Shown here piece after piece: positions 1-15,566 of a DNA stretch of 64,000 nt. Within the stretch, counting starts at the first letter, position 1. Each line of letters opens with the position of its first letter. The translations under genes and the position numbers were made by a program. Source of the stretch: Candidatus Moraniibacteriota bacterium (GTDB taxonomy: Bacteria > Patescibacteriota > Minisyncoccia > Moranbacterales > UBA1568); the NCBI GenBank assembly GCA_016699875.1, contig CP064989.1, forward strand, positions 328,788-392,787, given 5' to 3'. The notes beneath the pieces are model-generated. The model searched no databases. It saw nothing but the letters and a program-made list of their open reading frames with translations, and had not been told where the DNA came from.

Positions 1-65
1 GAATCGCACATGATCGAAGTGTTCGCCGAGCCGTTACCAGAGAGAGCTTCTACTGGTTCTTCCAT

Positions 66-1466
66 GTGTATTTCTCACATTACGTAAAATATGCCACAGC
101 TCCTTTTCAGAAGGAGATGTTTAGCCTACTTGAAAGCGATATCCATCAGACGCTTGTCTTCGTTGCTTTCCGAGGTTCAGGGAAATCGACGATCGTCACC
201 ATGGCCTATGTCCTCTGGGCCATTCTTGGTCGACAGGAAAAGAAATACTCGGTGATTACTGGTCAGACTCAATGGCAAGCCCGTCAGCACCTTCAGAACA
301 TTAAGCAGGAACTGGAACGGAATGATGTTCTACGAGGCGATCTTGGTCCGTTTCGAGAAGAGCGAGATGATTGGGGTTCGCTTTCTCTCGTTCTCTCGAA
401 CTATGGAGCGAAGATCACGGCTGCTTCGACAGAGCAAAGTATCCGAGGTATGCGTCACGGAGCCTATCGTCCGGATTTAATTGTCTGTGATGATGTAGAA
501 GATCTTTCCTCAGTGAAAACCTTGGAAAGTCGAGAAAAGACGTATCGGTGGTTTACAGGCGACGTGGTGCCATCTGGTGATCGAGAAACGAGAGTCATCG
601 TCGTTGGGAATCTTCTGCATGAGGATTCGCTTATTATGCGTCTTAGAAAAAATATTGAACAAGGCAATCTAGCCGGGCTTTTCAGAGAGTATCCGTTGCT
701 TGATACCGAAGATCGTTCTCTGTGGCCGGGGAAGTTTTCTGATGAAGCATCGATCCAAACCGAAAAGAAAAAAGTTGGAAGTTACAATGCATGGATGCGG
801 GAGTACATGCTACAGATTTTGCCGGAAGATGATCAGCTCGTGTTATCCGAATGGATTCACTCCTACGAAACATTTCCGAGCCAAGAAGAGCTCCCATTTT
901 GTTTCACGGTTGCTGCTGTTGATCCAGCAATCTCTAAAGAACAAAGTGCCGACTCTACCGCTATCATCACCGCCAAAGTATATGGGTACGCCGAAAAGCG
1001 CCGTATCTATATCTTGCCGTACCCGACCAACCAGCGTCTCAACTTTTCCGAACAGCTAGAAACAATCAAGAGACTAGCAGAAGAGCATCAAAGAAAGATT
1101 ACTCTTCTCATTGAAAATAATGGCTATCAAAGAGCGCTGGTGGAGATGCTCGAAAAGGAACGCTATCCGGTGAAAGGCGTTCAGAATATTGGGCAAGACA
1201 AACGGGCCCGCATTTCACTTATTACGCCGCACCTCAGAAGTGGGATGGTGCTCTTCCCTAAGAATGGTGCCGATGCTCTCATTCAACAACTTGTTGGATT
1301 TGGTGTGGAAAAGCACGATGACTTAGCGGATGCGCTCGCAACTTTGGTGACGTACTGCGTGGAGAATAACAGGCGGTCAGCAAGAGAGAGTCTGGAACTG
1401 TTTGTTAAGATGAATCCTCATCTGCAAAAGTATGATCCGGGAAGTTTATGGAATAAGCGGTTCTAA
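66..1466 (+). CDS. Phage terminase large subunit (ATPase + RNaseH-like nuclease), possibly prophage/satellite remnant
   Basis: Walker A-like 'VAFRGSGKST' near N-terminus, 'VCDDVEDL' Walker B-like, C-terminal 'AAVDPAISKEQSADSTAIIT' nuclease-fold motif typical of terminase large subunits; true start may lie upstream of window start region. Confidence 0.65.
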   Translation: MYFSHYVKYATAPFQKEMFSLLESDIHQTLVFVAFRGSGKSTIVTMAYVLWAILGRQEKKYSVITGQTQWQARQHLQNIKQELERNDVLRGDLGPFREERDDWGSLSLVLSNYGAKITAASTEQSIRGMRHGAYRPDLIVCDDVEDLSSVKTLESREKTYRWFTGDVVPSGDRETRVIVVGNLLHEDSLIMRLRKNIEQGNLAGLFREYPLLDTEDRSLWPGKFSDEASIQTEKKKVGSYNAWMREYMLQILPEDDQLVLSEWIHSYETFPSQEELPFCFTVAAVDPAISKEQSADSTAIITAKVYGYAEKRRIYILPYPTNQRLNFSEQLETIKRLAEEHQRKITLLIENNGYQRALVEMLEKERYPVKGVQNIGQDKRARISLITPHLRSGMVLFPKNGADALIQQLVGFGVEKHDDLADALATLVTYCVENNRRSARESLELFVKMNPHLQKYDPGSLWNKRF

Positions 1467-1467
1467 A

Positions 1468-2391
1468 CTATTCTTCTGACTTTGCAAGCTCATTTCTATT
1501 GCTATGTGTTTCTGATAAAAACACAGCCAGAGTTGATGCTGCCCCCACTGCTAAACGTGCATGACGCGCCCCTAAACCCTTTGTTCCTGCTACCTTCCCG
1601 TGACCAGTTCCATAATGGTTTCGCAACTCCGCGATACCCTGGGTAATAGTAGCTAAGTTACTAAGCAATCTCTTTATTGTTTCAGCTGCCTTTGCTTTTT
1701 CAGGGATATCTTGAGGAGTAAGTTCCAGTTCCTTGCTAGTAAGTTTTACTAACTCCGGTATGTCAGTATTTTTACCGAACTGAATACCTCGTTCTTCAAG
1801 GACTGTCTTGCAACATGTCTCCACTAATTCTTTAGCGGTTCCAATCGCAAGAGATACATCATTTGTAACCGCAGCTTCCATGCGAGTAATTTGCTGGGCG
1901 ATATACATTGGATCAAGACCTGTCAGTGTTGCACGAGCGGATTGTATACCCGGAGTAATCCCTGTGCCTATAATGGCTCGACCAGTATAGACTGGCTTAC
2001 CTGACATACGAGTACGTTCAACTAATTCAAAGCCATCATTTTTCAAAAATTGATTGAACATTTGATGAAGTTTCTCTGACTCCGTAACGTCAGATCGTAC
2101 AACCGGATGTATCGTCTCGCAGAGAAAACGTAAAAATACCTCATCATCCCCATTTAATAGATTGAGGCGTTCATCAGAAAAAACCCAGTCATCATCCCAA
2201 TCATAGTTCATAACACGATGGCGCCAAATATCTCCAGCTGCATCAGCATGTCTTGGATCGTAAGATGGCAAGGTCTCAAGATCAAAAATTCTCGATAAAA
2301 ACTCCGACTCCTCAAGACGGCCGGCCCATTTCACATTTTCAGCTCTTATTGCGTCGATAATATCCCGACGCGTGATTTGAGATATTTTCAT
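1468..2391 (-). CDS. Abi_C / HEPN-domain abortive-infection-like protein (AbiJ-like architecture)
   Basis: C-terminal 'ELRNHYGTGHG' = R-x6-H HEPN/Abi_C signature; N-terminal helical domain; start codon 2-3 nt after stop of upstream helicase (translational coupling). Confidence 0.6.
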   Translation of the reverse strand: MKISQITRRDIIDAIRAENVKWAGRLEESEFLSRIFDLETLPSYDPRHADAAGDIWRHRVMNYDWDDDWVFSDERLNLLNGDDEVFLRFLCETIHPVVRSDVTESEKLHQMFNQFLKNDGFELVERTRMSGKPVYTGRAIIGTGITPGIQSARATLTGLDPMYIAQQITRMEAAVTNDVSLAIGTAKELVETCCKTVLEERGIQFGKNTDIPELVKLTSKELELTPQDIPEKAKAAETIKRLLSNLATITQGIAELRNHYGTGHGKVAGTKGLGARHARLAVGAASTLAVFLSETHSNRNELAKSEE

Positions 2392-2393
2392 TA

Positions 2394-4115
2394 TTAATTA
2401 TTTAGGTTTTTAAAAAAGTTTGCGTCAACAATTACGTTACTTATTCTACTCGAGTCTATCCGGTCAATAAAAACAGATTGGTTCATACCAAACGTCGTTG
2501 CAAAACTTTTATTTGAAATTAAATAACACTGCTTTCGTGTTCTAGTTAACCCAACAATAAACTGACATATCTCTTTATCAGTTGGTTTTTTCTGTATCTT
2601 AGGAAATTCTGTATTGTTTAAACCAACCAGAAAAACAAAAGATGCAGACAGTCCCTTGCAACCATTAAAGGACGTTATCTTTATTGGACTTTGCTTTTTA
2701 TCTTTGTCTTCAGCCTCTGGATCTTTTTTTAGAACCTTCTTTAATTCTTCTATTGTAATAGCAAGCTTATCTGTAACAACCTCTTCTTCATCTTCAGAGA
2801 GAGATTCATCTTTCTTAACCTTTTTCAGTATCTCTAAAACAGCAAGATGTTCATCTTTAAAGTCGGCAGGTATGAGATCTACTAAAGAAACTTGGTTTTG
2901 TTCCGATTCTACAAGCATTTGCTTTAGAATCTTTTTCTTCATTTCTATCTCCGAAAGAACTCTCCAACCGAGATTTGATTGGTTGTTTTTTAACAGAACT
3001 AAGTATCCATCTAATAAGTTGAGCGTATCGTTGGTAGTCTCTTTAAAATCTATATCTTTGAATTTCTTTGATAAGTATCCGTACACCTGGTTTAAATACT
3101 GAGTCTGACCAGCAATAAGGACGCAAGGGTAGTTACCTTTTTGTGCCTTTACCCAATCCTCCGGAGTAATTTTGTTTATCTCACTCTCAATATATTTTCC
3201 GATGTAATTATAATTATCTGTTTTTCTCTGTAATGAACATCTCGCATGAATAATTTTCGGATACTGAACACTCTCGGCTTCCTTATCAGGCAGGTAGCAA
3301 ACATATTCCTTGTTGATCCTGCCGACGAGCCTACCTACTGCTTGTGCTCTGCCTATTATGTCGTGAACTGCGCTAATAATAACCTCTGTACATCGGCTAC
3401 AAAACGGCAACGAGAATCTTATAAAATTCTTATCCGAAGCCTTGTTTCTAATAAATCTTGGGGAGGCATCTTTTAAGTCCTCGTATACTGCCTGATCATC
3501 ATCTCCCACTATGAGTGTTGGGCTTAGCTTGGAAAGCTCTTCAAGAAAAGAAACTTCTAAAAGATTAAAATCCTGATACTCATCTACCACAATCTGACCA
3601 TATGTAGGGATCACGGAGCTATCCTTCTTGAAAGATTGAAGTACTCGGTATACCGCATCATCGTGCCCAACAGCGTTGTAGTAAGTAGCTCTTGTCAGAA
3701 AAAACTTTAATTCTTCTCCTTTATTAAGATTTTGAAATACCTTTCTAAAGTTTTTATACTTATCTCCCGTTAAGTATTTGTTATCTGACTTTATTACTAG
3801 AGGTAGCTTTGGAAAGTAATAAAAAGATGAGGTAAGCCCATCAATTTTTAAAGTATGTAGAAGCTTTTTGCAATAACCATGAAAAGTGTGGGCTTCCGCT
3901 AATCCAGATAGATCCTTCTTTAGCTCATCAGCTAAGTTATTTATAAAAGTTAGAGCTAGAGATTTTACTTTCTTTTGCTGTAATAAAGATTTAAAAGTAA
4001 AACTTTTTCCGGTACCAGCCCCAGCGATAACAAGCTTAAATCTGTCATCCGACTCGACAAGCTCTTTGGTTAGTCTATCCCTTTCATTCTTTTGAAACTC
4101 TTTAATATCTGACAT
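2394..4115 (-). CDS. UvrD/Rep/PcrA-like superfamily 1 DNA helicase
   Basis: Walker A 'AGAGTGKS', motif Ia 'TFHGYC', motif II 'VVDEYQD', motif III 'GDDDQAVY', motif VI 'VGLTRTRK'; very AT-rich coding sequence; lysine/glutamate-rich insertion near C-terminal third. Confidence 0.75.
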   Translation of the reverse strand: MSDIKEFQKNERDRLTKELVESDDRFKLVIAGAGTGKSFTFKSLLQQKKVKSLALTFINNLADELKKDLSGLAEAHTFHGYCKKLLHTLKIDGLTSSFYYFPKLPLVIKSDNKYLTGDKYKNFRKVFQNLNKGEELKFFLTRATYYNAVGHDDAVYRVLQSFKKDSSVIPTYGQIVVDEYQDFNLLEVSFLEELSKLSPTLIVGDDDQAVYEDLKDASPRFIRNKASDKNFIRFSLPFCSRCTEVIISAVHDIIGRAQAVGRLVGRINKEYVCYLPDKEAESVQYPKIIHARCSLQRKTDNYNYIGKYIESEINKITPEDWVKAQKGNYPCVLIAGQTQYLNQVYGYLSKKFKDIDFKETTNDTLNLLDGYLVLLKNNQSNLGWRVLSEIEMKKKILKQMLVESEQNQVSLVDLIPADFKDEHLAVLEILKKVKKDESLSEDEEEVVTDKLAITIEELKKVLKKDPEAEDKDKKQSPIKITSFNGCKGLSASFVFLVGLNNTEFPKIQKKPTDKEICQFIVGLTRTRKQCYLISNKSFATTFGMNQSVFIDRIDSSRISNVIVDANFFKNLNN

Positions 4116-4221
4116 AGCCCAGAATCCTCTAAAAACTAAACTTTAGGCAATTATAGCAAAAAGTCATTTTAGCCCCTGAAGGCCCCTAGACTTGTTTAGG
4201 GGTACGCGTCATTCATGGGGT

Positions 4222-5547
4222 ATGGATACCATGCAAATTCAAGGGAATACTATCAGACAACACATCCCTACGAATGTAAAGTACTGCCTGTACGCTAGAA
4301 AAAGCAGCGAATCGGAAGAGCGCCAAGTGCTCTCCATTGATTCTCAAATCAAGGAAATGCTACTCCTTGCTGACCGGGAAGGGCTCGAGATCGTTGCCAT
4401 GAAACGAGAATCTCACTCCGCCAAAGAAACGGGAGGTCGTCCCATCTTTAATGAAATCGTCGAAGAGCTTCGAGAAGGAAAATTCAACGGCATCCTGACA
4501 TGGGCACCGGATCGCATTTCTCGTAACGCTGGAGATTTAGGAAAAATCGTGGATCTCATGGATGCCGGAAAGCTAGAGGAAATCAGAACGTATAGCCAGA
4601 GGTTTACTAATAATCCTAACGAGAAGTTTCTTCTCATGATCCTTGGTTCGCAAGCAAAGCTTGAGAATGACAATCGAGGCATTAATGTAAAACGAGGGCT
4701 GCGTACAAGAGTTGAGATGGGTCTCTGGCCAGGCGTAGCCCCTATCGGCTATCTCAACCAGAAACACATCGAAAAGAAATGTCAGATCATCATTGATCCA
4801 GAGCGCGCACCCGTGGTCAAAAAGATATTCGAGAAGATGGCCCATGAGAAGTGGTCAGGCCGCAAGATATATCACTGGCTTAGATTCGAACTCAACTTTA
4901 AGAGTTTAAGCAATCACTATATTGCTCTTGGTAATATCTTCCGGATTCTTCAGAATCCTATTTACTACGGATCCTTCGAATACCCGAAGGGTTCTGGCAA
5001 CTGGTATCAAGGAAAACACGAACCAATCATCGACAAAGAGCTCTTTGACAAAACTCAAGAGCAATTGAAAAGGGACAAGATTGTTCGACAGAGCCGGGAG
5101 TTTGCTTTTACCAAACTCATGGTGTGCGGATTATGCGGATCAGGGATTTCTGCGGAAGAGAAGTATAAGCAGCTTAAAGATGGAACAACAGCCAAGTATA
5201 TCTATTACGGCTGCGGAAGATCCAAGGATCGACACTGCAAGAACCCATACCTGCGCGAAGAAGAATTAACTGAACAATTGATTAAAATAATGGATCAAGT
5301 CGATCTTAATCGAACGGGGGTACAGCACAAGTTTGAAGAGGAGCTAAAACGTTACAACAAGTTCAATCGAGGGGTGCTTGGCATCAGAAACCAAGCGCAA
5401 GAGCACCAAGATCTTGATCTGAAAACATATGCTAAGTATGTCCTTCGAGAAGGAACGAGCGAAGAGAAACGAGATCTCATGGGATGCTTCAAATCTAAGG
5501 TAAAAGTACTAAGAAAAATTATCACTATTGAACCAGAAAACCTATGA
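4222..5547 (+). CDS. Large serine recombinase (integrase/resolvase family)
   Basis: N-terminal resolvase catalytic region 'YARKSSESEERQVLSIDSQ', recombinase domain, C-terminal zinc-ribbon 'CGLCGS...YYGCGRSKDRHC'; ORF track starts at 4192 but ATG at 4222 (MDTMQIQ) gives canonical spacing before catalytic Ser. Confidence 0.8.
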   Translation: MDTMQIQGNTIRQHIPTNVKYCLYARKSSESEERQVLSIDSQIKEMLLLADREGLEIVAMKRESHSAKETGGRPIFNEIVEELREGKFNGILTWAPDRISRNAGDLGKIVDLMDAGKLEEIRTYSQRFTNNPNEKFLLMILGSQAKLENDNRGINVKRGLRTRVEMGLWPGVAPIGYLNQKHIEKKCQIIIDPERAPVVKKIFEKMAHEKWSGRKIYHWLRFELNFKSLSNHYIALGNIFRILQNPIYYGSFEYPKGSGNWYQGKHEPIIDKELFDKTQEQLKRDKIVRQSREFAFTKLMVCGLCGSGISAEEKYKQLKDGTTAKYIYYGCGRSKDRHCKNPYLREEELTEQLIKIMDQVDLNRTGVQHKFEEELKRYNKFNRGVLGIRNQAQEHQDLDLKTYAKYVLREGTSEEKRDLMGCFKSKVKVLRKIITIEPENL

Positions 5548-5656
5548 AACCACCCTAAAATTCAGAGTTGATTTTTGTCCTTCAAAAAGCTATACTTGTC
5601 GTACAATCTGTCCTAACCCTTAGAGGACCTCTGACTCTAAGGTATGGCGCAATAAA

Positions 5657-5800
5657 CCCTAGCTAATAGAGACGGCCTCATGGTCGGCACTTATTAGCTA
5701 GGTCGGTTCCCGAAAGGGTTCCGGGCATTCCGAAAGGTTTGTCGCCGTTCCGTGGGGCTTTTTGTATACCTCAAGAACGGAATTTAAATCCTAGCTAATA
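5657..5800. repeat. Hairpin/inverted-repeat cluster: 'ccctagctaata'(5657-5668) / 'tattagctagg'(5692-5702) inverted pair plus third direct copy 'cctagctaata' (5790-5800); additional 'cccgaaaggg' palindromes
   Basis: Read directly in sequence immediately downstream of the serine recombinase stop; candidate att/recombination or structured RNA region. Confidence 0.4.
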
Positions 5801-5818
5801 AATATAATCAATATAATT

Positions 5819-6361
5819 ATGAGTGAGCAAATTCAGTCTTTGGAACAGATTCAGAATGTTCCAACTAAGCGCCCTTGGTATAAGCGATGGTGGGTGATAG
5901 TTGTTGCAGTATTCATTATCTTCGGTGCCATAGGTGGTAGCGGAGGAGACAAGTCAAAAACTTCATCTACTAGTGAAAATTCAGTTGAAAAACAAGGCTC
6001 CGGCAACACAGTAGAAGAAACTACTGCAAAAACTGAAGAGAAGAAGCCAAGCGTACCAGCCGAATATAAATCTGCACTCAGCCAAGCTACTTCGTATGCT
6101 AATACCATGCATATGTCGAAAAAAGGAGTGTACGATCAGCTAGTTTCAGAATACGGCGGAAAGTTCTCTGCTGAAGCAGCACAGTATGGTATCGATAATG
6201 TAGAGACGGATTGGAATGCCAATGCCCTCGCCAAAGCAAAAACCTATCAAGATTCAATGCACCTCTCACCAGCAGCAATACGTGACCAACTAGTCTCGGA
6301 ACACGGTGAAAAATTCACTCAGACTGAAGCAGATTATGCCATTACAAATCTTAACAAATAG
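5819..6361 (+). CDS. Membrane-anchored protein with two Ltp-family (host cell surface-exposed lipoprotein / superinfection exclusion) repeats
   Basis: N-terminal TM helix 'WWVIVVAVFIIFGAIGG'; tandem ~50-aa repeats 'YDQLVSEYGGKFSAEAAQYGIDN' and 'RDQLVSEHGEKFTQTEADYAITNL' characteristic of Ltp domain. Confidence 0.55.
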   Translation: MSEQIQSLEQIQNVPTKRPWYKRWWVIVVAVFIIFGAIGGSGGDKSKTSSTSENSVEKQGSGNTVEETTAKTEEKKPSVPAEYKSALSQATSYANTMHMSKKGVYDQLVSEYGGKFSAEAAQYGIDNVETDWNANALAKAKTYQDSMHLSPAAIRDQLVSEHGEKFTQTEADYAITNLNK

Positions 6362-6393
6362 TGTGAACCCAAGAAGAGTATAGGGCTATAATA

Positions 6394-6420
6394 AAACTGC
6401 CAATCTGGCAGTTTTATTAT
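6394..6420 (+). terminator. Rho-independent terminator after Ltp-like gene
   Basis: hairpin 'aaactgcca-atc-tggcagttt' followed by T-rich 'tattat'. Confidence 0.55.
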
Positions 6421-6509
6421 ATCTATTGGCTCATTCCCACTGATCGTACAAAATAGGGTGTATCTAGTCTTAGAAGCGTCCTTGGTATAAACGATGGTGG
6501 GTAATAATC

Positions 6510-6737: not shown

Positions 6738-7732
6738 TAATGCAAACATTGGTACTCCAATGATAACCAAAGCCAACGCCTTCACCATTTCTTCAATCAG
6801 AAATGAAAATGAAGACCCCTGACCATCATTACAACAGTCAGGGGTTAATCCTTACCCTTACAAAGTACTCAATATTTCATTGCGCTCAACCCAAGACCAT
6901 AGGCAACACTTGTGAAGGCATCGACTGGAAGTATTTTCCCCTCCCCAAACCGGTCCAGGAAGATTCTCCTGACTCTTGGAATAAAGGAGGAACCTCCTGT
7001 TAAAAGAACGGTGTCCACATCCTGTAAAGAGATCCCAGCCCGAGACACTGTATCGTCCACGCAGACTTCAATCTTCTGAAACTTGTCTTCTGCCAGAGTT
7101 TCAAATGCATCTCTTGTGATTTCCTCCCGGATCACGATGCCTTTCTCGGAAAATTCGATGATGGAGGATTCCCTATCAGAGAGTTCTCGCTTCACCTTCT
7201 CGATAGCTCGGAACAGCATATAGCCAAGATTTTCGATAATCAGAGTGTGAAGATTTTTCACTGCTTTCTGATCCTCGTCGGACACCCCTCGAAGCGAGTG
7301 GATTATTTGAAGCGTCTTCTTGTCGCGAAGCTGTGGAATCATGTGCCACTCACAGAGCGTCATCGGAAGCCAAATTGGAAGCTCAAGAATTTGATCAGGC
7401 AACGATCCGCGAATCTTTGTGTCTCTGCCAAAGTGTTTTGCAAGTTCGTGCCACATGATAGAAGCATCAAAAGCATCGCCCGCGATATACACTCCGCCAG
7501 TTGCGAGAATATCTTTTTCACGATCTTCTCTCGAATCACGTTTTCCACCACGGAGCCGCATAACTACGAAGTCAGACGTTCCACCGCCGAAGTCACCCAT
7601 GAGCACCAGTTTCTCCTCCCCCTTTCGAAGGTCTGACTCATAGGAAAGCGTCGCCGCGATCGGTTCGTACACGAAGTGCACATTTGCAAACCCAGAACGA
7701 AGAGCTGCTGCCCGCAATCTTTCTTCCGCTAA

Positions 7733-8580
7733 GAACCTGTTTACAATCTTCTGGTACACTGAGGACATAATCCTCAAACCAAAAGAACCATGTATCCAAG
7801 CGACATAACCCGAGAACAATTCGAACACATCAGACCATTTCTCGAATCAACCAGGAAGAGAACCAAACCAAAGACACTTGATTCCTATGACGTATTCAAC
7901 GCTCTGCTCTACATTCTGGTCACGGGTTGCCAATGGAGGGCACTTCCCAAGGATTATCCAAAATGGCAGAGTGTCTATCGACACTTCCTTGTCTGGAAGG
8001 AACGAAAAACAAACAGACAGAGAGTATGCTTGAGCAAGTCTTAAAAAAATTGGTCGAACAAGAACGTATGAAAAATGGCAAACAATGCAAAACCAGTTTC
8101 TGCATCGTTGATGCTCAAAGTGTCAAGAATACAGATACGGCTCGAGAAAAAGGTTATGATGCAGGAAAAAAAGTTTCCGGTATCAAGCGACATATTCTCG
8201 TTGACACCAACGGATTGCCGCATGCGTTCACGGTAACCACTGCTAACGTCACTGATCGAAATGGAGCTATCCAAGCCGTCAAGGCAAACAAAAAAACACC
8301 TTTCACGGGTGGAGAAACTCTTGACTGATGGTAGTTATACCGGAGAAAACTTCGCCAAAGCGATCAAAGCATGTATCGGTGCGGAAGTGGGAGTAGCTAA
8401 ACGAAACGAATTGCATACGTTTGCCGTTCTTCCTCAGCGCTGGGTGGTCGAGAGAAGCTTCTCCTGGCTGGAGAAATGCCGAAGGCTCTGGAAGAATTGC
8501 GAACGGACACTGGATTCGAGCTTACAGATGATGGTTTTAAGTTTTGCTCGATTGTTGTTGAAAAGATTGTAAACAGGTTC
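7733..8580 (+). mobile_element. IS5-family insertion sequence (IS1031/ISL2-like), copy 1, with 3-bp TSD 'taa'
   Basis: Terminal inverted repeats 'gaacctgtttacaatctt' / 'aagattgtaaacaggttc'; flanking direct 'taa' at 7730-7732 and 8581-8583; internal DDE transposase reading frames; second copy at 58231..59080. Confidence 0.75.
7790..8572 (+). pseudogene. IS5-family DDE transposase, split into three frames by homopolymer indels (copy 1)
   Basis: ORFs 7790..8044, 7927..8328, 8261..8572 together equal the orfA/orfB of copy 2; A-run lengths differ from copy 2 at three sites (A5 vs A6 at the KERK site, A7 vs A8 at the LKK slippery site, A7 vs A6 at the KANKK site). Confidence 0.65.
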
Positions 8581-9096
8581 TAAGAGATCAAGCTCTCTGT
8601 CTTCTGAAAAGAGTACGGGACGACCCATGACAACCGTGTCCACGACATGTCCCACATGGAGTTCGCCGCGATGCTTGATAGTTTTCAGAATGAGCGCGAT
8701 TAAATCTTCGATTTCATAGCGCCTGCCAAAAACATAGGTTTCTTTGAAGCTCTTACTTGGCAGAAATGCCTTGATGGATTGCATGAGACGACCGTAGGTT
8801 CCGCCGTAATCAACGTATTGGTCAATAGCCTCCTGACCAATATTGATACCACCTTCCTCGTCAAAGAAAAGTACCGATTTGAGGGTGTGTGGCGATGGAC
8901 TCGATGGGTCAATATCAGCAATTGCGACGTTATTTCCCTTCGCTATTGCCAAAACAGAATTTGTGGTTCCAAAATCAAGACCAAATGCTATAGACATGAG
9001 AATATCCTCGTTTCTAATAAGTTTGAAAGGTGCTTCCCGTGTATATCACAAACTCTTCTAAATATCAATGGCTCGAATTTCTGAATAAAAAGAGTC

Positions 9097-9735
9097 TTAC
9101 AAGTTCATGCATCTTCGAATGTTATCAAGAGTCACAATTTTACCATTCAAATTCGTTCCTGGATTCTTGAAAATTTTATCGTGAATGCTAGAGCACCATA
9201 AATCAGTAGGGTTGCTTTCTGTGTTGATAACACAACCGCCCACTGCTAATGCCCATTTGGCATTAAACTTTTCGATAGACTCAAAATACTTGTTCGAAAG
9301 ATAGATATCTTCCGTTTCCTTCCTATTATTCACGCTCAAGCATCTTGCGCGAGAAATATTATACCCACAACGAACCCAAACAAACACATTCGGAAATATA
9401 ATTTCCTCAATTTTCTTCTTAAGGAGATCGAAGTATGCCTCTCTTATATCAGCCAATCCCAATTCATACAGAGCGAATACGTGAGCGCTCACGGAAACAA
9501 AGCTTCTGTCCAAAAGATTGACGCCGGTTTGAAGAAAACTTTTTCGATATGTATCCACTGAGAGATACCGGTCTTGCAAGTTCAGATACTCACTTTTATA
9601 AAAGCTCCTCTGTGGGACACCGTCAATAAAAAGAGAGTGTTCATCAACAGACACGTAGCCGTAGTTATCTGAGAGAAACCGAATGAGCGTTGTCTTTCCC
9701 GTGTACACATTTCCATCGAATGAGATGACTCTCAT
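9097..9735 (-). CDS. P-loop NTPase, nucleoside/nucleotide kinase-like
   Basis: Walker A 'FDGNVYTGKTTL' at N-terminus, ~210 aa, dNK/thymidylate-kinase-like size; 4-bp overlap with upstream radical SAM gene. Confidence 0.4.
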   Translation of the reverse strand: MRVISFDGNVYTGKTTLIRFLSDNYGYVSVDEHSLFIDGVPQRSFYKSEYLNLQDRYLSVDTYRKSFLQTGVNLLDRSFVSVSAHVFALYELGLADIREAYFDLLKKKIEEIIFPNVFVWVRCGYNISRARCLSVNNRKETEDIYLSNKYFESIEKFNAKWALAVGGCVINTESNPTDLWCSSIHDKIFKNPGTNLNGKIVTLDNIRRCMNL

Positions 9736-10604
9736 AAGGCCAATTTACACTTTTTACACAAATCCGTGTAAACATCCGATCCGTTGTTATAAATAGCCTG
9801 GCGGTATTTTTTATACATCTCGGAGTTCCATATATCTTCCATAGAACTCTCCGTCACATTTCCCAGCTTGTGCTTCCATTTCCAGTCCATGCAGCAGAGA
9901 ATCACGTCTCCTCTAAAATTTATGTGCATTCGTTCCAATGGTCTTCTCTGCTCGCAGCCATAGACAAACTCCTTGTTTATGTCGTTCGAAAACCTCTCAA
10001 CATTACCACTTCTATCAAAGAATCCCCAGAATTCGAATTTGATAAATGTCTCCCTGCAGAAATCTCTCGCCAACAAAATGTCTTCTTGGGTTATTTCTGG
10101 ATAATCAACCATGACAAGCGACACCTGTCCTATGTTCGCGCGCAATTCTTTGTTTTGGGAAAGAGTATCCAAATTTTTCTTTGTTTTTTTCCAATTTAAT
10201 CCAGGCATCACTTTCCGATAAGATTCTTCTGTAAAACCGAAAACACTAAGCCGCAATTCTTTTATGGTAAAGGCTTTCAGTTTATTCTGCATTTCCTCGT
10301 TAAGCTGTGAGACATTAGTGGACACTTCTATCTCCACGCCCGGACATTTCTGGTTAATATAAGATAGCCTTTCGAATATGAGTGGATCGAGTAAAGGCTC
10401 ATTATTGAAATACGGGATGATCCGAATGCCCCAGGGATTCTTTATTTGATCAATAATCTTTTTGAAAAGATCCATAGACATAATGCCGCCCGGCAATTTT
10501 CCTGCGACATCCCTATGCGGACAAATAATACATCCGGCATTACAAGACGATATGGTTTGAATCTCTATGGCTGATGGGAACGGATTGTATGACACCTTTT
10601 TCAT
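9732..10604 (-). CDS. Radical SAM enzyme with C-terminal SPASM/twitch-like Cys cluster
   Basis: 'CNAGCIICP' CxxxCxxC motif near N-terminus; C-terminal 'CCMDW...LGNV...EDIWNS...CKKCK' auxiliary cluster region. Confidence 0.7.
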   Translation of the reverse strand: MKKVSYNPFPSAIEIQTISSCNAGCIICPHRDVAGKLPGGIMSMDLFKKIIDQIKNPWGIRIIPYFNNEPLLDPLIFERLSYINQKCPGVEIEVSTNVSQLNEEMQNKLKAFTIKELRLSVFGFTEESYRKVMPGLNWKKTKKNLDTLSQNKELRANIGQVSLVMVDYPEITQEDILLARDFCRETFIKFEFWGFFDRSGNVERFSNDINKEFVYGCEQRRPLERMHINFRGDVILCCMDWKWKHKLGNVTESSMEDIWNSEMYKKYRQAIYNNGSDVYTDLCKKCKLAL

Positions 10605-10610
10605 AGAGGC

Positions 10611-12167
10611 TCATCTAGTTCTCTCGAGACCCGAATAAATCTGGGAAAGAATATCATCCCTGCCTAATCGTGAAACGCCGTTTATAAAGGTAAAATATTC
10701 AATCTTCAGTTTGAAAAATTTTTCAGAAAATTTTTCAGTGAAATCTTTTTGGAAGCAATCATTCATTGAGTCACCTTTCCCTACTTTAGCAATCAAGGAG
10801 GAGAGAAAAACATAAATACTATCCATTAGCTCTTTCTGAGAAAGACAGAATCTTTGATGCTCAAGGCTAAGTTCCTCGCCCAGATGGATATTTTCTTTCT
10901 GAATTAGACCATATAGAATACCCATCGTTGTACAATAATATTCAAACTCGTAAGCAATTCCTCCAAAATTCCCACTAAAAATACTCTTAGCTTTCTCAAA
11001 GAGCCTCCCGACATCGTCATTCAAAAATCTGTAGCCATATGTTATATCTCGGTAGCGCGCTTCAGTACTTATAAGACCACCCTCAAGGAGTTTCTTATGC
11101 ATAAAAGATCCGGGTATCACACGAACTGGTTCAAGTATCACGCCTAATCTGAATAATTTCCCTATTTTGTACAAATATTCTAGATTCATTTGGATGTCAT
11201 CAAGCGTCGAAAATGGCTCAAAGGTTATATATCCAATATGAACATTAACATTCAATCGATTCAGCTTCTCCCGAATCTCAATAAATGAATCTTTTTTAAT
11301 TGGTTTCCTAAATAAAATCTGCGATTTTTCCGAAGCGTTCTCCACACCAAGAAAAACCCTAACAAGACCAGCATCTGCCAGTGCATTTAACACTTCATCA
11401 TGAATAAATGGGTTACATCGTAAATATACATACATTCTTATATCAAGCTTTCGTCTTTTTATTTCCGAACAAAATTTCAAAATGCGATCATTATCTCTTC
11501 CAGACGCCCAAAAAACACTATCATTGAAGATGAAAAGCTTTTTCCCAATTTCCTTGTTTAGGAGCTCCATTTCATCTACAACTTTAACCGGGTCTCGAAA
11601 ATCCATTACTGCTACAGTTTTCTCTTTACGGGTTGCAAGCGGTATATGACAGAATGAACAATTATAGATACAACCTCGAGAAGCTTCTATATTTATATAA
11701 CTTCCTAGCTCTTCTTTCTCCACATCCCTTGCTGGAAATGGCAATTGATTAAGCAGAATATATGCTTCACTCGGCACATATTCCACGATTGATTGATTTT
11801 CCCGCCAAATCCCCCCTTTACATTCTTTTATTGATACGTTTCGTTGAATCATTTCAAGCAACTTCCCAGCAACACTCTCAACCTGATCAATGATGATTCC
11901 ATCTAACCATTCATTTTCCTCCAGCATGGATTTTGCATTCAAAGATGCAAACGGTCCACAGAAGAAGATTTTAGACACTTCGCCACCACCTCTCATGATC
12001 TTAAATAATGGAAACATGATAGCAAAGTCTTTAAAATTTGGCTTTGCAATAATAACGAGTCTTTCATTGGAATTCTCACTCAAAATGCTTCCAAAAGAAT
12101 GGAAATTTTCCTTTTCCAAAAGGCATATATCAACAATGAATCCCTTACCCCTTAAAATAGGCAGCAA
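10611..12167 (-). CDS. B12-binding domain radical SAM (class B) enzyme
   Basis: N-terminal cobalamin-binding-like domain followed by 'ASRGCIYNCSFCH' radical SAM motif, ~520 aa. Confidence 0.7.
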   Translation of the reverse strand: MLPILRGKGFIVDICLLEKENFHSFGSILSENSNERLVIIAKPNFKDFAIMFPLFKIMRGGGEVSKIFFCGPFASLNAKSMLEENEWLDGIIIDQVESVAGKLLEMIQRNVSIKECKGGIWRENQSIVEYVPSEAYILLNQLPFPARDVEKEELGSYINIEASRGCIYNCSFCHIPLATRKEKTVAVMDFRDPVKVVDEMELLNKEIGKKLFIFNDSVFWASGRDNDRILKFCSEIKRRKLDIRMYVYLRCNPFIHDEVLNALADAGLVRVFLGVENASEKSQILFRKPIKKDSFIEIREKLNRLNVNVHIGYITFEPFSTLDDIQMNLEYLYKIGKLFRLGVILEPVRVIPGSFMHKKLLEGGLISTEARYRDITYGYRFLNDDVGRLFEKAKSIFSGNFGGIAYEFEYYCTTMGILYGLIQKENIHLGEELSLEHQRFCLSQKELMDSIYVFLSSLIAKVGKGDSMNDCFQKDFTEKFSEKFFKLKIEYFTFINGVSRLGRDDILSQIYSGLERTR

Positions 12168-12368
12168 GCGACCCTATCGTCAGAGACGCTCCCGATTGGG
12201 AGAATAATGATCTAAAATAAACTAGCTTTATTCTGATTGGCTTTTCCAGAAGAGCGTCTTTTTCCATAGGACAAAATATGCTAGCATTATTAGGACGTTG
12301 CATAGTAAACTGAATATTGTTTAAAGTCAATGTGATCAAGACTAGAAGAAAATATCTAAAGAAACATT

Positions 12369-12812
12369 ATGGATAAGGGACTTATCGTGCACGCACTTCT
12401 CTTCAATGAGAAGCAAGAAGTTCTGCTCATTCGGAGATCGTTGAGTGAGGATGTTTTGCCAGGCGTCTGGGATATTCCCGGGGGCACTCTCCATGATGGA
12501 GAGGATCCAGTAGAAGGTGCGATTAGAGAAACTACGGAAGAGGTTGGGCTTAATATAAAAAATCTCAGTTTATTTCACTACACATCAAACATTGATCAGA
12601 AAAAGAATAAACAGTTTATTCGCCTTATATTTATCGGTACCTGTGATAGCTTCGATGTGGTGTTAAACCCGGAAGATCATGATAAATATCAATGGGTACC
12701 AAGTAGCCATCTTCCGCAGAACATGGAACTAGTAGATTACCTTCCTGAGGTTTTCGATATATTAAAAGAAAAGAAACATCTACTGGCTAATTACTATGTT
12801 CATGCAGAATGA
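12369..12812 (+). CDS. Nudix hydrolase
   Basis: Nudix box 'GGTLHDGEDPVEGAIRETTEEVGL'. Confidence 0.75.
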   Translation: MDKGLIVHALLFNEKQEVLLIRRSLSEDVLPGVWDIPGGTLHDGEDPVEGAIRETTEEVGLNIKNLSLFHYTSNIDQKKNKQFIRLIFIGTCDSFDVVLNPEDHDKYQWVPSSHLPQNMELVDYLPEVFDILKEKKHLLANYYVHAE

Positions 12813-14163
12813 GTGTTTTGCTTTTTCTGATAGGATAGTTGAAAACTACAAAACCAAAATAACGAAAGGTTGATAACCATCCGGAAAGACCATGGAGCAT
12901 ATAAAAGAAGAAGCTTCCCGAAAGCAAATATACGAAAATTACCAGCGTACCAGTAGCATCTTTTCCCCGAAAAATGATCCAGGAAAGAAAATTCGGCACT
13001 ACCAAAAAGCATACGTATACCAAGAAGAAAGATGCCCATGTAGCTGTTGAACCTGAAATAGCGGTACAAAGAAACAAAAAAAGCAAGAATGACGGTCCCA
13101 CGATCCAATAGATAGCATGAGAAAATAACTTCAAAGAGAAAATCAAAAGACGATCCCTTTTTACAGAGGGATCATTTTTTGTTATCTGAAAATAATAGTC
13201 AAATGCCTGCAAAGGCCCGAAAAACCAACTAGCCTTCTGAAAAAACAGACTCTTTATGCTATCCGGAGAATAGGAAACATCAAAAAACGGAATCGGCTCA
13301 ATAACATACCCGTAATAATTCAGTTGCAAACCAAAAATAGCATCTTCGTTATGCATATCTTCGGAAAAACCACCGACCTCCTTGTAAATTCTCTGCGAAA
13401 AGAATAGCCCATGCCCAATGCAATAATTCATGGGAGCAAACAAGGACGGTCGCGCATTTCTCTCTTTGAATTGATCCAAAGAATGCGGAATCTCAAAACC
13501 GATGCTCCACCTATTTTGCCACAGCGACGCGGAAAGTAGGATGGATTTTCTTAAAAAATTAGATATGCGGGAAATGATCGGATAGTTCCCAAGATAATTT
13601 CCGTATTGCTGAAAAACTTGGGGAGGATTTTCTCCCATTCGGACACTACGCACAACTCGCCAGACCCAATAAAACGTCCTGCTATCCGGTCTTGAATCAG
13701 CATTGTAAAGAGCAAAATAATCCCCCGCTTTTAACTGAAAGGAGCCTCTTATAAAATTCACTGCGTAGTTCACCTGATGTGCCATCTTTCCTCCCGTATA
13801 AGGGTAGTGTACACAAATTATGTTGTCATATTTCTTCTCAAGTAACTTTGACATGGCAACAGTATCTCTTCCACTTCCCTTATAATTGAGATTATATTCC
13901 TCTTCCGTTGTCACTATTATCACTTTAGACCCATCAAATGATTGGAGGATGCTAGAAAAGTATTTTATTGTATTCTCCAGAATATCTATTTCATCAAGTA
14001 CTGGTATCAGAACAAAAAATCGAACACCGTTATTCCCATTAGCAGACGATATATTTTCAGATACATTCAACCTCAACCAGAGAACAGTTCTAAAGATTCT
14101 TAGTATCCATAATGCTGATACAAAGAGAAAGCCTATTGCAACTGCAATAAAAAATCCATTCAT
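12787..14163 (-). CDS. Processive family 2 glycosyltransferase with C-terminal multi-TM region
   Basis: GT2 fold start 'VLIPVLDEIDILENTI', 'QNRW' (QxxRW) motif of processive GT2 synthases, several C-terminal hydrophobic helices. Confidence 0.6.
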   Translation of the reverse strand: MNGFFIAVAIGFLFVSALWILRIFRTVLWLRLNVSENISSANGNNGVRFFVLIPVLDEIDILENTIKYFSSILQSFDGSKVIIVTTEEEYNLNYKGSGRDTVAMSKLLEKKYDNIICVHYPYTGGKMAHQVNYAVNFIRGSFQLKAGDYFALYNADSRPDSRTFYWVWRVVRSVRMGENPPQVFQQYGNYLGNYPIISRISNFLRKSILLSASLWQNRWSIGFEIPHSLDQFKERNARPSLFAPMNYCIGHGLFFSQRIYKEVGGFSEDMHNEDAIFGLQLNYYGYVIEPIPFFDVSYSPDSIKSLFFQKASWFFGPLQAFDYYFQITKNDPSVKRDRLLIFSLKLFSHAIYWIVGPSFLLFLFLCTAISGSTATWASFFLVYVCFLVVPNFLSWIIFRGKDATGTLVIFVYLLSGSFFFYMLHGLSGWLSTFRYFGFVVFNYPIRKSKTLILHEHSN

Positions 14164-14210
14164 AAATATCCAACTTTTTTAAAAAAGCGTTTGACCATCA
14201 CAGCCAAACG

Positions 14211-14879
14211 CTACTCATTCTCCGCAGAGCAACCAACTAGCTTGATTAGCTCTTCCACTGAAAAAAATATAATTGCTTCTCGGATCGCTTCTACCTGTGA
14301 GTCCGAGCAATGAAACAGATTCCTAATCGGATGCTCTTTAGGAATCCTATAGCTCGATCGTATCTTCCTTCTTAACTCAAGAAGCTTGTCGGTTACAGAT
14401 TCACCTGCAAGAACTATAAATAATGTCGGACTTGAACAGAAATACTCAATAAGAACAGTCTCCCATTCCGGCTCGAAAAAGTACGGGTAGAGACGAAATA
14501 GATTTGATTCCTCGATCAGCACTCTCTTCTCACCAACAATTCTCCCAATCGACTCCAGCTCTGTCCGGATAAACCCATCAAGATTCCTTTCATAGGCATC
14601 TGGTTTGATAGAACAAAATCCAAATTTTTTCAGCCTACTTAGCCTTGAATCGTCAGGAAGTGGGTCCAAAACTCCTCTCCACCATCTTTTCTCATTCCCA
14701 ACTTTGATGTATTCACCATTCTCATCCTCAAAAATAAAACCATGTGCATCTGGTCCAACATAAAGCCTTAATTTCTGGCCATCAACTCGGACTAGACAAA
14801 TTGGCCTATTCTTTGAATCAAGAATTTGATTTTTGCGAATCTCATCTTCACTAGTGGGATATGCTACTAAACCAATCAT
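14211..14879 (-). CDS. Hypothetical protein
   Basis: Long ORF co-oriented with the GT2 gene; no motif recognised. Confidence 0.3.
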   Translation of the reverse strand: MIGLVAYPTSEDEIRKNQILDSKNRPICLVRVDGQKLRLYVGPDAHGFIFEDENGEYIKVGNEKRWWRGVLDPLPDDSRLSRLKKFGFCSIKPDAYERNLDGFIRTELESIGRIVGEKRVLIEESNLFRLYPYFFEPEWETVLIEYFCSSPTLFIVLAGESVTDKLLELRRKIRSSYRIPKEHPIRNLFHCSDSQVEAIREAIIFFSVEELIKLVGCSAENE

Positions 14880-15428: not shown

Positions 15429-15479
15429 GCAGTACCCGTTACTAAGGCACTCGGGTCATCCGATACTAAATATACAGTG

Positions 15480-15566
15480 CGGAGAGGCAGGGATTCGAAC
15501 CCTGGAAGGGGTTTCCCCCTTAACACATTAGCAGTGTGCTGCTTTCAGCCGCTCAGCCACCTCTCC
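15480..15566 (-). tRNA. tRNA-Ser (anticodon GCT), long variable arm, CCA not encoded
   Basis: Reverse complement folds as GGAGAGG-acceptor, D-arm 'GCTGAGCGGCTGAAAGC', anticodon loop 'CTGCTAA', long variable arm, T-arm 'GGGTTCGAATCCC', discriminator G. Confidence 0.8.

Follow-up and report, generated by a model that had tools for sequence, protein, structure and literature searches.

To our knowledge, only a few pathways are known in which radical S-adenosylmethionine (SAM) enzymes make nucleoside analogues (oxetanocin, albucidin, albomycin, 4'-thiothymidine, and the viperin products), and several of these have given antiviral or antibiotic leads. OxsB contracts the furanose of dAMP, dADP, or dATP, with OxsA, a phosphohydrolase, and an unspecific alcohol dehydrogenase as required partners (PMC13331322). 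The 4'-thiothymidine cluster thmABC encodes a radical SAM enzyme, a nucleoside kinase, and a resistance-conferring NTPase, and albomycin also uses two radical SAM enzymes (PMC12691670). ForT is a phosphoribosyl pyrophosphate (PRPP)-dependent C-nucleotide synthase that forms the C-glycosidic bond of formycin 5'-phosphate (PMC8183095). Here we describe a gene cassette at 9097..14879 of a 64,000-nt stretch of Candidatus Moraniibacteriota bacterium DNA (contig CP064989.1), which we refer to as the window and to whose positions all coordinates refer. It encodes two radical SAM enzymes, two nucleotide-type kinases, a Nudix hydrolase, and a membrane glycosyltransferase of family 2 (GT2). The window carries a decaying copy of this cassette, which is self-contained and has spread by horizontal transfer, and we put the probability that the cassette makes a sugar-remodelled nucleoside or nucleotide analogue at roughly 0.4.

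The six open reading frames (ORFs) of the first-pass annotation are all present at the coordinates and on the strands it gave, and Pfam supports the radical SAM, SPASM, P-loop kinase, Nudix, and GT2 types it named. They encode an NDK-like (nucleoside diphosphate kinase) protein of 222 aa (14211..14879, minus strand; Pfam NDK), a membrane GT2 of 458 aa (12787..14163, minus; Glyco_trans_2_3), a Nudix hydrolase of 147 aa (12369..12812, plus; NUDIX, 4e-21), a class-B-like (OxsB-like) radical SAM enzyme whose gene is interrupted (10611..12303, minus; the remaining ORF, 10611..12167, encodes 518 aa with a Radical_SAM domain), a BtrN-like twitch radical SAM enzyme of 290 aa (9732..10604, minus; Radical_SAM and SPASM), and a P-loop kinase of 212 aa assigned to the deoxynucleoside kinase (dNK) family (9097..9735, minus; dNK). 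The tight junctions also hold: the two radical SAM genes are separated by 6 bp (10605..10610), and the twitch and dNK-like genes overlap by 4 bp (9732..9735). The Nudix gene and the radical SAM gene are divergently oriented, and at their 3' ends the Nudix and GT2 genes overlap by 26 bp. The GT2 and 222-aa genes had been called downstream; on the minus strand both lie upstream of the radical SAM genes. The segment is AT-rich as described, with a GC content of 0.385 compared with 0.50 for the window from 16 to 64 kb (composition profile). In a promoter and terminator scan, overall site counts were at chance level; the promoter-like site that scored best (14976-14948) lies upstream of the NDK-like gene, and on the minus strand a strong hairpin (12-bp stem) with a T-run behind it (14212-14186) separates the genes for the NDK-like protein and the GT2.

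The large radical SAM gene is frameshifted, and this damage had been missed. Its homologues are 540-563 aa long and start with the sequence that a 64-aa ORF (12145..12339) encodes in the window, an ORF that matches residues 1-50 of the intact orthologue P0002. DNA alignment to the closest homologous locus (L067; L-numbers denote homologous loci throughout) reveals one extra T in the T4 run at 12154..12157. The N-terminal part ends in ...EKPIRIKLVYFRSLFSQSGASLTIGSLAAYFKG* in the window and reads ...EKPIRIKLVYFRTLFSQSGASLTMGSLAAYLRNKGFIVD in P0002, and removing the extra T restores AAYLRGKGF, compared with AAYLRNKGF in L067. The reading frame of the N-terminal ~50 codons (12303..12148) differs from that of the remainder (..10611); the intact gene would span from the ATG at 12303 to 10611 and encode ~563 aa. 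The 64-aa ORF, which had been suggested as a separate gene for a precursor peptide, is the N-terminus of the radical SAM protein, cut off by the extra T. A programmed +1 frameshift at GGG-TAA was considered and judged less likely, since the L067 alignment puts the extra base in the T4 run, which makes a simple indel more parsimonious. The extra base may be a homopolymer assembly error at this single site; ORF pairs that overlap elsewhere in the window represent separate genes and not frameshifted halves, so an assembly-wide indel problem is not evident. In the AlphaFold2 model of P0002 (pLDDT 88.5), strands at residues 23-30, 56-63, 81-87, 111-114, and 135-137 alternate with helices in a Rossmann-like domain that precedes the radical SAM domain. 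The shortened window product lacks strand 1 and helix 1 of this domain (residues 23-30 and 41-52).

The window protein retains the CX3CX2C motif (CIYNCSFC) and a Pfam Radical_SAM match of 1.4e-13. When the family profile was compared with the PDB, OxsB matched at 6e-22 and the next solved structure at 6e-11; the alignment begins at OxsB residue 138 and covers the cobalamin-binding and radical SAM domains at ~16% identity. A fold ranking of the P0002 model also placed OxsB first (TMq 0.66), followed by TsrM, AprD4, MgmA, TokK, and CysS. Because the enzyme lacks the OxsB N-terminal domain and an HD partner and shares only ~16% identity, it is OxsB-like at best and not a member of the OxsB family. 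Of the earlier label "B12-binding radical SAM", the radical SAM motif stands, and the Rossmann-like domain of the orthologue model fits it, but Pfam PF02310 (B12-binding) had no match at E<0.1 in the window protein and matched weakly in P0087 only. Cobalamin binding is therefore putative and is suggested by the predicted architecture; AprD4, an equally good structural match, has the same fold and is not known to use cobalamin. The best NCBIfam match is ApyD, an enzyme of ribosomally synthesised and post-translationally modified peptides (RiPPs), at 3.5e-21 and far below cutoff. Hopanoid HpnI/HpnJ-like, ladderane-lipid, BzaD, BchE, and PhpK assignments were rejected, as their NCBIfam scores are 5-10 times below cutoff.

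The small radical SAM enzyme is the most conserved cassette protein (93% identical to that of L067). Its profile matched BtrN in the PDB at 2e-24, followed by the peptide epimerase YydG (3e-8) and viperin (6e-6), and Pfam SPASM matched at 2.2e-15. The invariant cysteines are C21/C25/C28 and C217/C237/C283/C286, and C183 is nearly invariant. The first-pass label "SPASM/twitch" is right about the radical SAM core and a C-terminal auxiliary cysteine domain; since only four C-terminal cysteines are invariant, the domain is of the twitch type and not a full seven-cysteine SPASM. Both radical SAM enzymes are thus nearest to enzymes that act on sugar rings. Neither they nor any other cassette protein reached an NCBIfam equivalog cutoff, and the radical SAM proteins, for which well-characterised cofactor-biosynthesis families had been named as an alternative home, reached no curated cofactor-family cutoff.

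Three further cassette proteins resemble nucleotide enzymes. The kinase encoded at 9097..9735 scores 37.8 bits against Pfam dNK (PF01712; gathering cutoff 27), its family profile matches NDUFA10, deoxynucleoside kinase, deoxyguanosine kinase, and thymidylate kinases in the PDB, and its invariant motifs are DGNVxxGKT (P-loop) and D-R-S (ERS-like). By sequence it belongs to the dNK family, with a putative substrate specificity. The 222-aa protein, which had been listed as unknown, carries an NDK domain at aa 88-210 (39.8 bits, 5e-10, cutoff 27) behind an ~85-aa N-terminal extension, and its best PDB matches are NDKs. It retains the catalytic His (NLFHCSDS) and the Lys of IKPDA, and ~10 residues of the Kpn loop are deleted (alignment to 2cwk). 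The Nudix box GGTLHDGEDPVEGAIRETTEEVGL is intact and fits GX5EX7REUXEEXGU; the nearest NCBIfam models are MutT, NudB, NudI, and NudG-type nucleoside triphosphate (NTP) pyrophosphatases, all below cutoff.

The AlphaFold2 model of the GT2 protein (pLDDT 90.5) comprises one N-terminal transmembrane (TM) helix, a GT-A domain, interface helices, and three long C-terminal TM helices, and invariant residues lie inside the TM helices. In Foldseek, the model most resembles Chlorella virus hyaluronan synthase (TMq 0.58-0.62), PcManGT (a minimal cellulose-synthase-like enzyme), and BcsA; no solved sequence relative was found at E<=1. The subfamily is small, with 165 representatives at E<=1e-30 among 1.84 billion. 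A DxD-like motif (NADS) is found at 154-157 and an ED motif at 273-274. The enzyme had been called a QxxRW-type GT2, and both a synthase-type fold and an invariant QNRW (aa 216-219) are present, but this QNRW sits in a family-specific inserted helix of ~30 residues (203-233) with an invariant WQxRW...E, which reads WQNRW (215-219) in the window. Judged by motif spacing, the canonical QxxRW position, ~36 residues past ED, is Q309-K-A-S-W313, where only Q and W are invariant.

The cassette recurs as a unit at ~30 loci in the candidate phyla radiation (CPR), DPANN-type archaea, Bacillota, Bacteroidota, and Verrucomicrobiota. When one genome per species was scanned (185,579 species), 61 loci emerged, ~25 of which have true family members; further family loci were found individually. 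Host records are labelled as CPR phyla, Saccharibacteria, Woesearchaeota, "Methanosarcinales" bins, Paenibacillus tyrfis, gut Bacilli and Clostridia, Prolixibacteraceae, and Verrucomicrobiae. We counted genes by tblastn and ORF clustering in 26 clustered loci (the window and L001-L025). The large radical SAM is present in all 26, the dNK-like kinase in 25, the twitch radical SAM in 23, the GT2 in 22, and the Nudix hydrolase, usually on the opposite strand, in 19. The NDK-like gene is found in 11 of the 26, all CPR-type; loci without it have a dTMP-kinase-like P-loop kinase instead. The GT2 and the NDK-like protein, which had been treated as bystanders, are core members of the cassette. The window and L067 are collinear along 6.3 kb, where 81% of the nucleotides are identical. 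Gut Bacillota have a tandem double kinase as their dNK-like gene, and a third kinase is encoded close by. A class I SAM methyltransferase often joins the cassette, and in L015 a Zn-alcohol dehydrogenase is inserted between the two radical SAM genes. Genes for histidine phosphatases (His_Phos_1) adjoin the cassette in several CPR loci (L004:6804-7421, L006:5710-7504, and L071:6780-7355) and may provide extra dephosphorylation steps.

Three loci from Verrucomicrobiae and Prolixibacteraceae/Bacteroidota (L014, L016, and L064) lack the GT2 and the twitch enzyme and keep the dTMP-kinase-like kinase, the large radical SAM, the dNK-like kinase, and the Nudix hydrolase. Instead of these two they encode a protein of the β-RFA-P-synthase family (TIGR00144, 160-169 bits compared with a cutoff of 113.5; L014:12274-13218, L016:12265-13215, and L064:12274-13224), whose only PDB relatives are ForT entries (1e-13). 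Kinases of the nucleotide type and a Nudix hydrolase are common to all versions; to these come an enzyme that forms glycosidic bonds (GT2 or ForT-like) and tailoring by radical SAM enzymes.

The modified-nucleotide product raised in the first-pass annotation thus gains from the NDK-like second kinase and its dTMP-kinase-like substitutes, from OxsB as the nearest relative of the large enzyme, from the NTP-pyrophosphatase-like Nudix protein, and from the ForT-type variant. Taken as family assignments, the dNK and NDK domains above the Pfam cutoff, the interchangeable second kinase, and a Nudix hydrolase near NTP pyrophosphatases support a nucleotide logic. From family membership and comparative context we infer the following route. 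The dNK-family kinase would phosphorylate a (deoxy)nucleoside-like substrate, and the second kinase (NDK-like here, dTMP-kinase-like elsewhere) would raise it to the di- or triphosphate. Radical chemistry on the sugar ring, i.e., a C-C rearrangement or C-methylation and an oxidation or dehydration, would fall to the OxsB-like and BtrN-like enzymes. The MutT/NudI-like Nudix enzyme would hydrolyse the triphosphate and so release the product or protect the producer, as OxsA and ThmC do. The GT2 would form a glycosidic bond at the membrane and either glycosylate and export the analogue or feed a surface glycoconjugate. The product may be a secreted antimetabolite or an intracellular antiviral nucleotide, both of which we considered. 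A bolder version, which we regard as rather doubtful, is a pathway shared across domains of life in which a nucleotide remodelled by radical SAM chemistry meets a minimal hyaluronan-synthase-like GT2 that couples glycosylation to export. It would yield a secreted glyco-nucleoside or an antiviral chain-terminating nucleotide on swappable scaffold modules (GT2 with twitch enzyme, or a ForT-like C-glycoside synthase).

Several observations weigh against a nucleotide-analogue product. We know of no nucleoside pathway that uses a multi-pass synthase-type GT2; the strict conservation of the GT2 is the weakest fit, and a polymer or glycolipid product would explain it better. The large radical SAM, at ~16% identity and without the N-terminal domain and the HD partner, is remote from OxsB, AprD4 is also a close fold match, and the missing PF02310 match leaves its cobalamin binding putative. 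One island, L070 (L070:8543-16461, between the genes for ribosomal proteins S8 and L6), keeps the GT2, the Nudix hydrolase, and two P-loop kinases (a 183-aa P-loop kinase and a dTMP-kinase-like protein) without a radical SAM gene, so the radical SAM enzymes may be tailoring and not core components. It also encodes an ABC-F ATPase, UDG, a second Nudix protein, and a Ham1-type NTPase; its GT2 cluster has 150 member sequences, and a 314-aa gene considered as ForT-like has no similarity to ForT. In Bacillota-type loci (L012, L065, L066, and L072), the cassette is placed among genes for PqqD, a CPBP (Rce1-like) protease, NTP_transf_5, and HPrK/ScmC-like proteins. The HPrK/ScmC-like P-loop proteins lie on both sides of the cassette, a threonine-aldolase-like pyridoxal-phosphate enzyme is also present, and L065 has a BpsA_C aminopropyltransferase-like protein. 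In the Bacillota branch, these genes hint at a peptide-linked product, which may be a peptide-nucleotide conjugate.

The GT2 is the natural starting point for a different reading, that of a surface glycan or glycolipid module. Here, the GT2 would polymerise or transfer a sugar tailored at the nucleoside-diphosphate-sugar stage by the radical SAM enzymes (and the methyltransferase, in loci that have one), and the kinases and Nudix hydrolase would manage nucleotides. The GT2 fold nearest to hyaluronan and cellulose synthases with its invariant residues in TM helices, the presence of the GT2 in 22 of the 26 loci, and the retention of GT2, Nudix, and kinases in L070, which has no radical SAM genes, all agree with it, and BtrN, AprD4, and OxsB all act on sugar-like rings. 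Yet it leaves unexplained the two to three nucleotide-type kinases and the NTPase-like Nudix hydrolase, more conserved than the GT2, as well as the ForT-type C-nucleotide synthase that appears where the GT2 is missing. Moreover, neither a sugar-1-phosphate nucleotidylyltransferase, a flippase, or a polymerase partner nor any other glycan gene belongs to the cassette, its flanks are not cell-envelope loci, and the canonical QxxRW Arg is absent at the homologous position. We hold a glycan product to be unlikely.

The Bacillota-type neighbourhoods bear on RiPP maturation, which had been named earlier as an alternative for this pairing of radical SAM enzymes: the B12-type enzyme would C-methylate a peptide, the SPASM-type enzyme would crosslink or epimerise it, the GT2 would glycosylate it, and the kinases would phosphorylate it. 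PqqD, CPBP protease, NTP_transf_5, and ScmC/HPrK-like genes next to the cassette are what such a pathway might bring along, ApyD is the top NCBIfam match of the large enzyme, and YydG is the second PDB relative of the small one; however, BtrN matches the small enzyme 16 orders of magnitude better than any peptide maturase. The 64-aa candidate precursor is the frameshifted N-terminus of the large enzyme, and no small ORF is conserved among cassettes beyond near-identical loci. Pfam detected no RiPP recognition element (RRE), protease, or transporter at the window cassette, and the CPR and DPANN cassettes in general have no RRE, leader protease, or exporter; PqqD is confined to the Bacillota-type loci. 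A RiPP pathway would have no use for NDK-like, dTMP-kinase-like, Nudix, and ForT-like partners. For the cassette of the window we therefore set RiPP maturation aside as very improbable.

Damage to the window copy extends beyond the frameshift. Directly after the dNK-like gene lies a gene (6869..8997, minus strand) for an Hsp70-like ATPase of the YegD type, consisting of the nucleotide-binding domain only, which is split at residue 138/139 by an IS5-family insertion sequence (IS) that had also gone unreported. The L067 orthologue is intact (425 aa), and each fragment (8997..8581, aa 1-139; 7735..6869, aa 138-425) shares 80% identity with it. The element (7729..8584, plus strand, 856 bp) has 22-nt terminal inverted repeats (7729-7750 and 8563-8584) and the Pfam transposase domains DUF4096, DDE_Tnp_1, and DDE_Tnp_1_2. 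Its transposase is spread over three ORFs (7790..8044, 7927..8328, and 8261..8572), which implies at least one frameshift beyond the usual programmed one. In L001, L002, L062, L067, and L069 the Hsp70-like gene comes after the dNK-like gene, and L071 has it at the opposite end of the cassette, upstream of the NDK-like gene. Within a Moranbacteria-like subclade it forms a seventh gene of the cassette. Since the large radical SAM is frameshifted and the Hsp70-like gene is split, the window copy is probably inactive. Other copies decay too: L069 (Moranbacteria; 8374-13258) has lost the large radical SAM, its twitch enzyme lacks the first 165 residues, and its NDK-like gene is truncated, and in L071 the large radical SAM is split into ORFs of 327 and 210 aa (9791-11421).

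The flanks are unrelated from locus to locus. Among 104 flanking ORFs surveyed, which are heterogeneous and include many housekeeping genes, no cell-wall or defence family dominates; the cluster is rare and patchy, and not a lineage-wide fixture beside cell-wall genes, the arrangement that would have pointed to housekeeping glycan synthesis. In the window, the left flank (1-6400) looks like a remnant of a prophage or integrative element with defence genes. It encodes a terminase large subunit (66..1466), AbiJ (1468..2391, minus strand), a UvrD-like helicase with a GC content of 0.36 (2394..4115, minus), a large serine recombinase (4192..5547), and an Ltp-type surface lipoprotein (5819..6361). 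The segment that encodes the N-terminal KRPWYKRWWV of the Ltp-like protein is repeated directly (33 nt, 91% identical; 5867-5899 and 6474-6506) at the start of the small ORF that follows. On the right, a tRNA-Ser(GCU) gene predicted by ARAGORN (15479..15566, minus strand) has its 3' end pointing toward the island and marks the right-hand limit of the low-GC region in the composition profile. Neither a second copy of the tRNA-Ser end (att-type repeat) nor direct repeats bounding the island were found. From the left-flank genes and the tRNA-Ser on the right, the cassette lies in a mobile, defence-rich region. The L064 copy is carried as cargo by a conjugative element, which also encodes a relaxase, TraG, a group II intron reverse transcriptase, and a giant restriction-modification helicase. 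The rarity (~25 of 185,579 species), mobility, and decay of the cassette fit an accessory trait. Farther to the right in the window, 37248-43214 (minus strand) encodes a 1988-aa protein with fibronectin type III, laminin-G/concanavalin-like, and purple-acid-phosphatase-N domains, which is probably a giant surface protein.

This setting raises anti-phage defence with a viperin-like logic, in which infection would trigger a chain-terminating or toxic nucleotide analogue and the Nudix hydrolase would limit self-damage. The inferred chemistry is identical to that of the nucleotide-analogue reading, viperins are weak relatives of the twitch enzyme (6e-6), and defence or mobile genes lie near the cassette in the window (AbiJ, the UvrD-like helicase, the serine recombinase, and Ltp) and at L001 (an Mrr-like nuclease), L064, L065 (type I restriction-modification), L067 (a reverse transcriptase and a helix-turn-helix protein), and L071 (a helicase and AbiEii after the cassette). 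Across the heterogeneous and often housekeeping flanks, such neighbours are not systematic. PADLOC 2.0 gave no meaningful component score (pVip 1e-3, PDC-M51A 5e-8, and the generic Nudix model PDC-S07 2e-15), the cassettes have no conserved sensor or regulator, and no known nucleotide-based defence relies on a membrane synthase GT2. Nor was the cassette found on viral contigs: IMG/VR has no relatives of the radical SAM or GT2 proteins, and plasmid and phage records hold only generic class-B enzymes at ~25% identity. A dedicated defence function is distinctly unlikely.

If the cassette does make a sugar-remodelled nucleoside or nucleotide analogue, it adds a distinct architecture to the known pathways, in ultra-small symbionts (CPR and DPANN) that are not regarded as makers of natural products. 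A non-methylating-type relative of OxsB and a minimal synthase-type GT2 that always accompanies nucleotide enzymes would also gain a testable function. The swappable modules (NDK-like or dTMP-kinase-like; GT2 with twitch enzyme or ForT-like) offer experimental handles. The value is lower for this genome, whose copy is frameshifted and disrupted by an IS. We found no paper describing this gene combination, nor any curated family or defence model for it.

Compared with the known systems, the cassette is most readily set beside oxetanocin A and albucidin (OxsB/OxsA and AlsB/AlsA). Both have a radical SAM enzyme of class-B architecture with a phosphohydrolase partner, the nucleotide substrates of the known enzymes fit the cassette kinases, and the alcohol dehydrogenase of the known pathway has a counterpart in the Zn-alcohol dehydrogenase inside L015. 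In contrast, the cassette enzyme has no OxsB N-terminal domain, the hydrolase is a Nudix and not an HD-domain phosphohydrolase, and a twitch radical SAM, two kinases, and a membrane GT2 are added; the known hosts are Bacillus and Streptomyces, whereas the cassette occurs in CPR, DPANN archaea, and gut Bacillota. The thmABC and albomycin systems (AbmG kinase, AbmM/AbmJ radical SAMs), likened here by gene content alone, share the set of radical SAM, dNK-type kinase, and protective NTP hydrolase, but they have no GT2 and no NDK- or dTMP-kinase-like second kinase, and they come from Enterobacterales and Streptomyces. The small radical SAM resembles BtrN, the 2-deoxy-scyllo-inosamine dehydrogenase of butirosin biosynthesis, in size (290 aa compared with 250-270 aa) and in joining a radical SAM core to a single-cluster twitch domain; the spacing of its four cysteines (20/46/3) also follows that of BtrN (~18/45/3). 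Unlike BtrN, it has no aminoglycoside context, and its partners are nucleotide enzymes.

The GT2 shares with the membrane synthases (hyaluronan synthase, BcsA, PgaC, and PcManGT) a GT-A domain on interface helices, a TM bundle, the NADS and the ED motif. It differs in having only four TM helices (minimal, like PcManGT), an extra WQxRW helix, and QKxxW without the Arg, and it is always encoded with nucleotide enzymes. Prokaryotic viperins also pair a radical SAM enzyme with one or more nucleotide kinases, and in both cases the product class may be a modified NTP, whereas the cassette enzyme has a twitch domain and BtrN as its nearest relative, well ahead of pVip (1e-3) and the solved viperins (6e-6). 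The formycin and pyrazofurin pathways, which use ForT/β-RFA-P-synthase-type enzymes, are approached by L014, L016, and L064, where a family member lies beside the large radical SAM and kinases; the window cassette has no ForT-like gene, and no other formycin or pyrazofurin genes accompany the cassettes. Taken together, the cassette is best called a type of radical SAM nucleoside-modifying cluster with an unusual architecture and host range.

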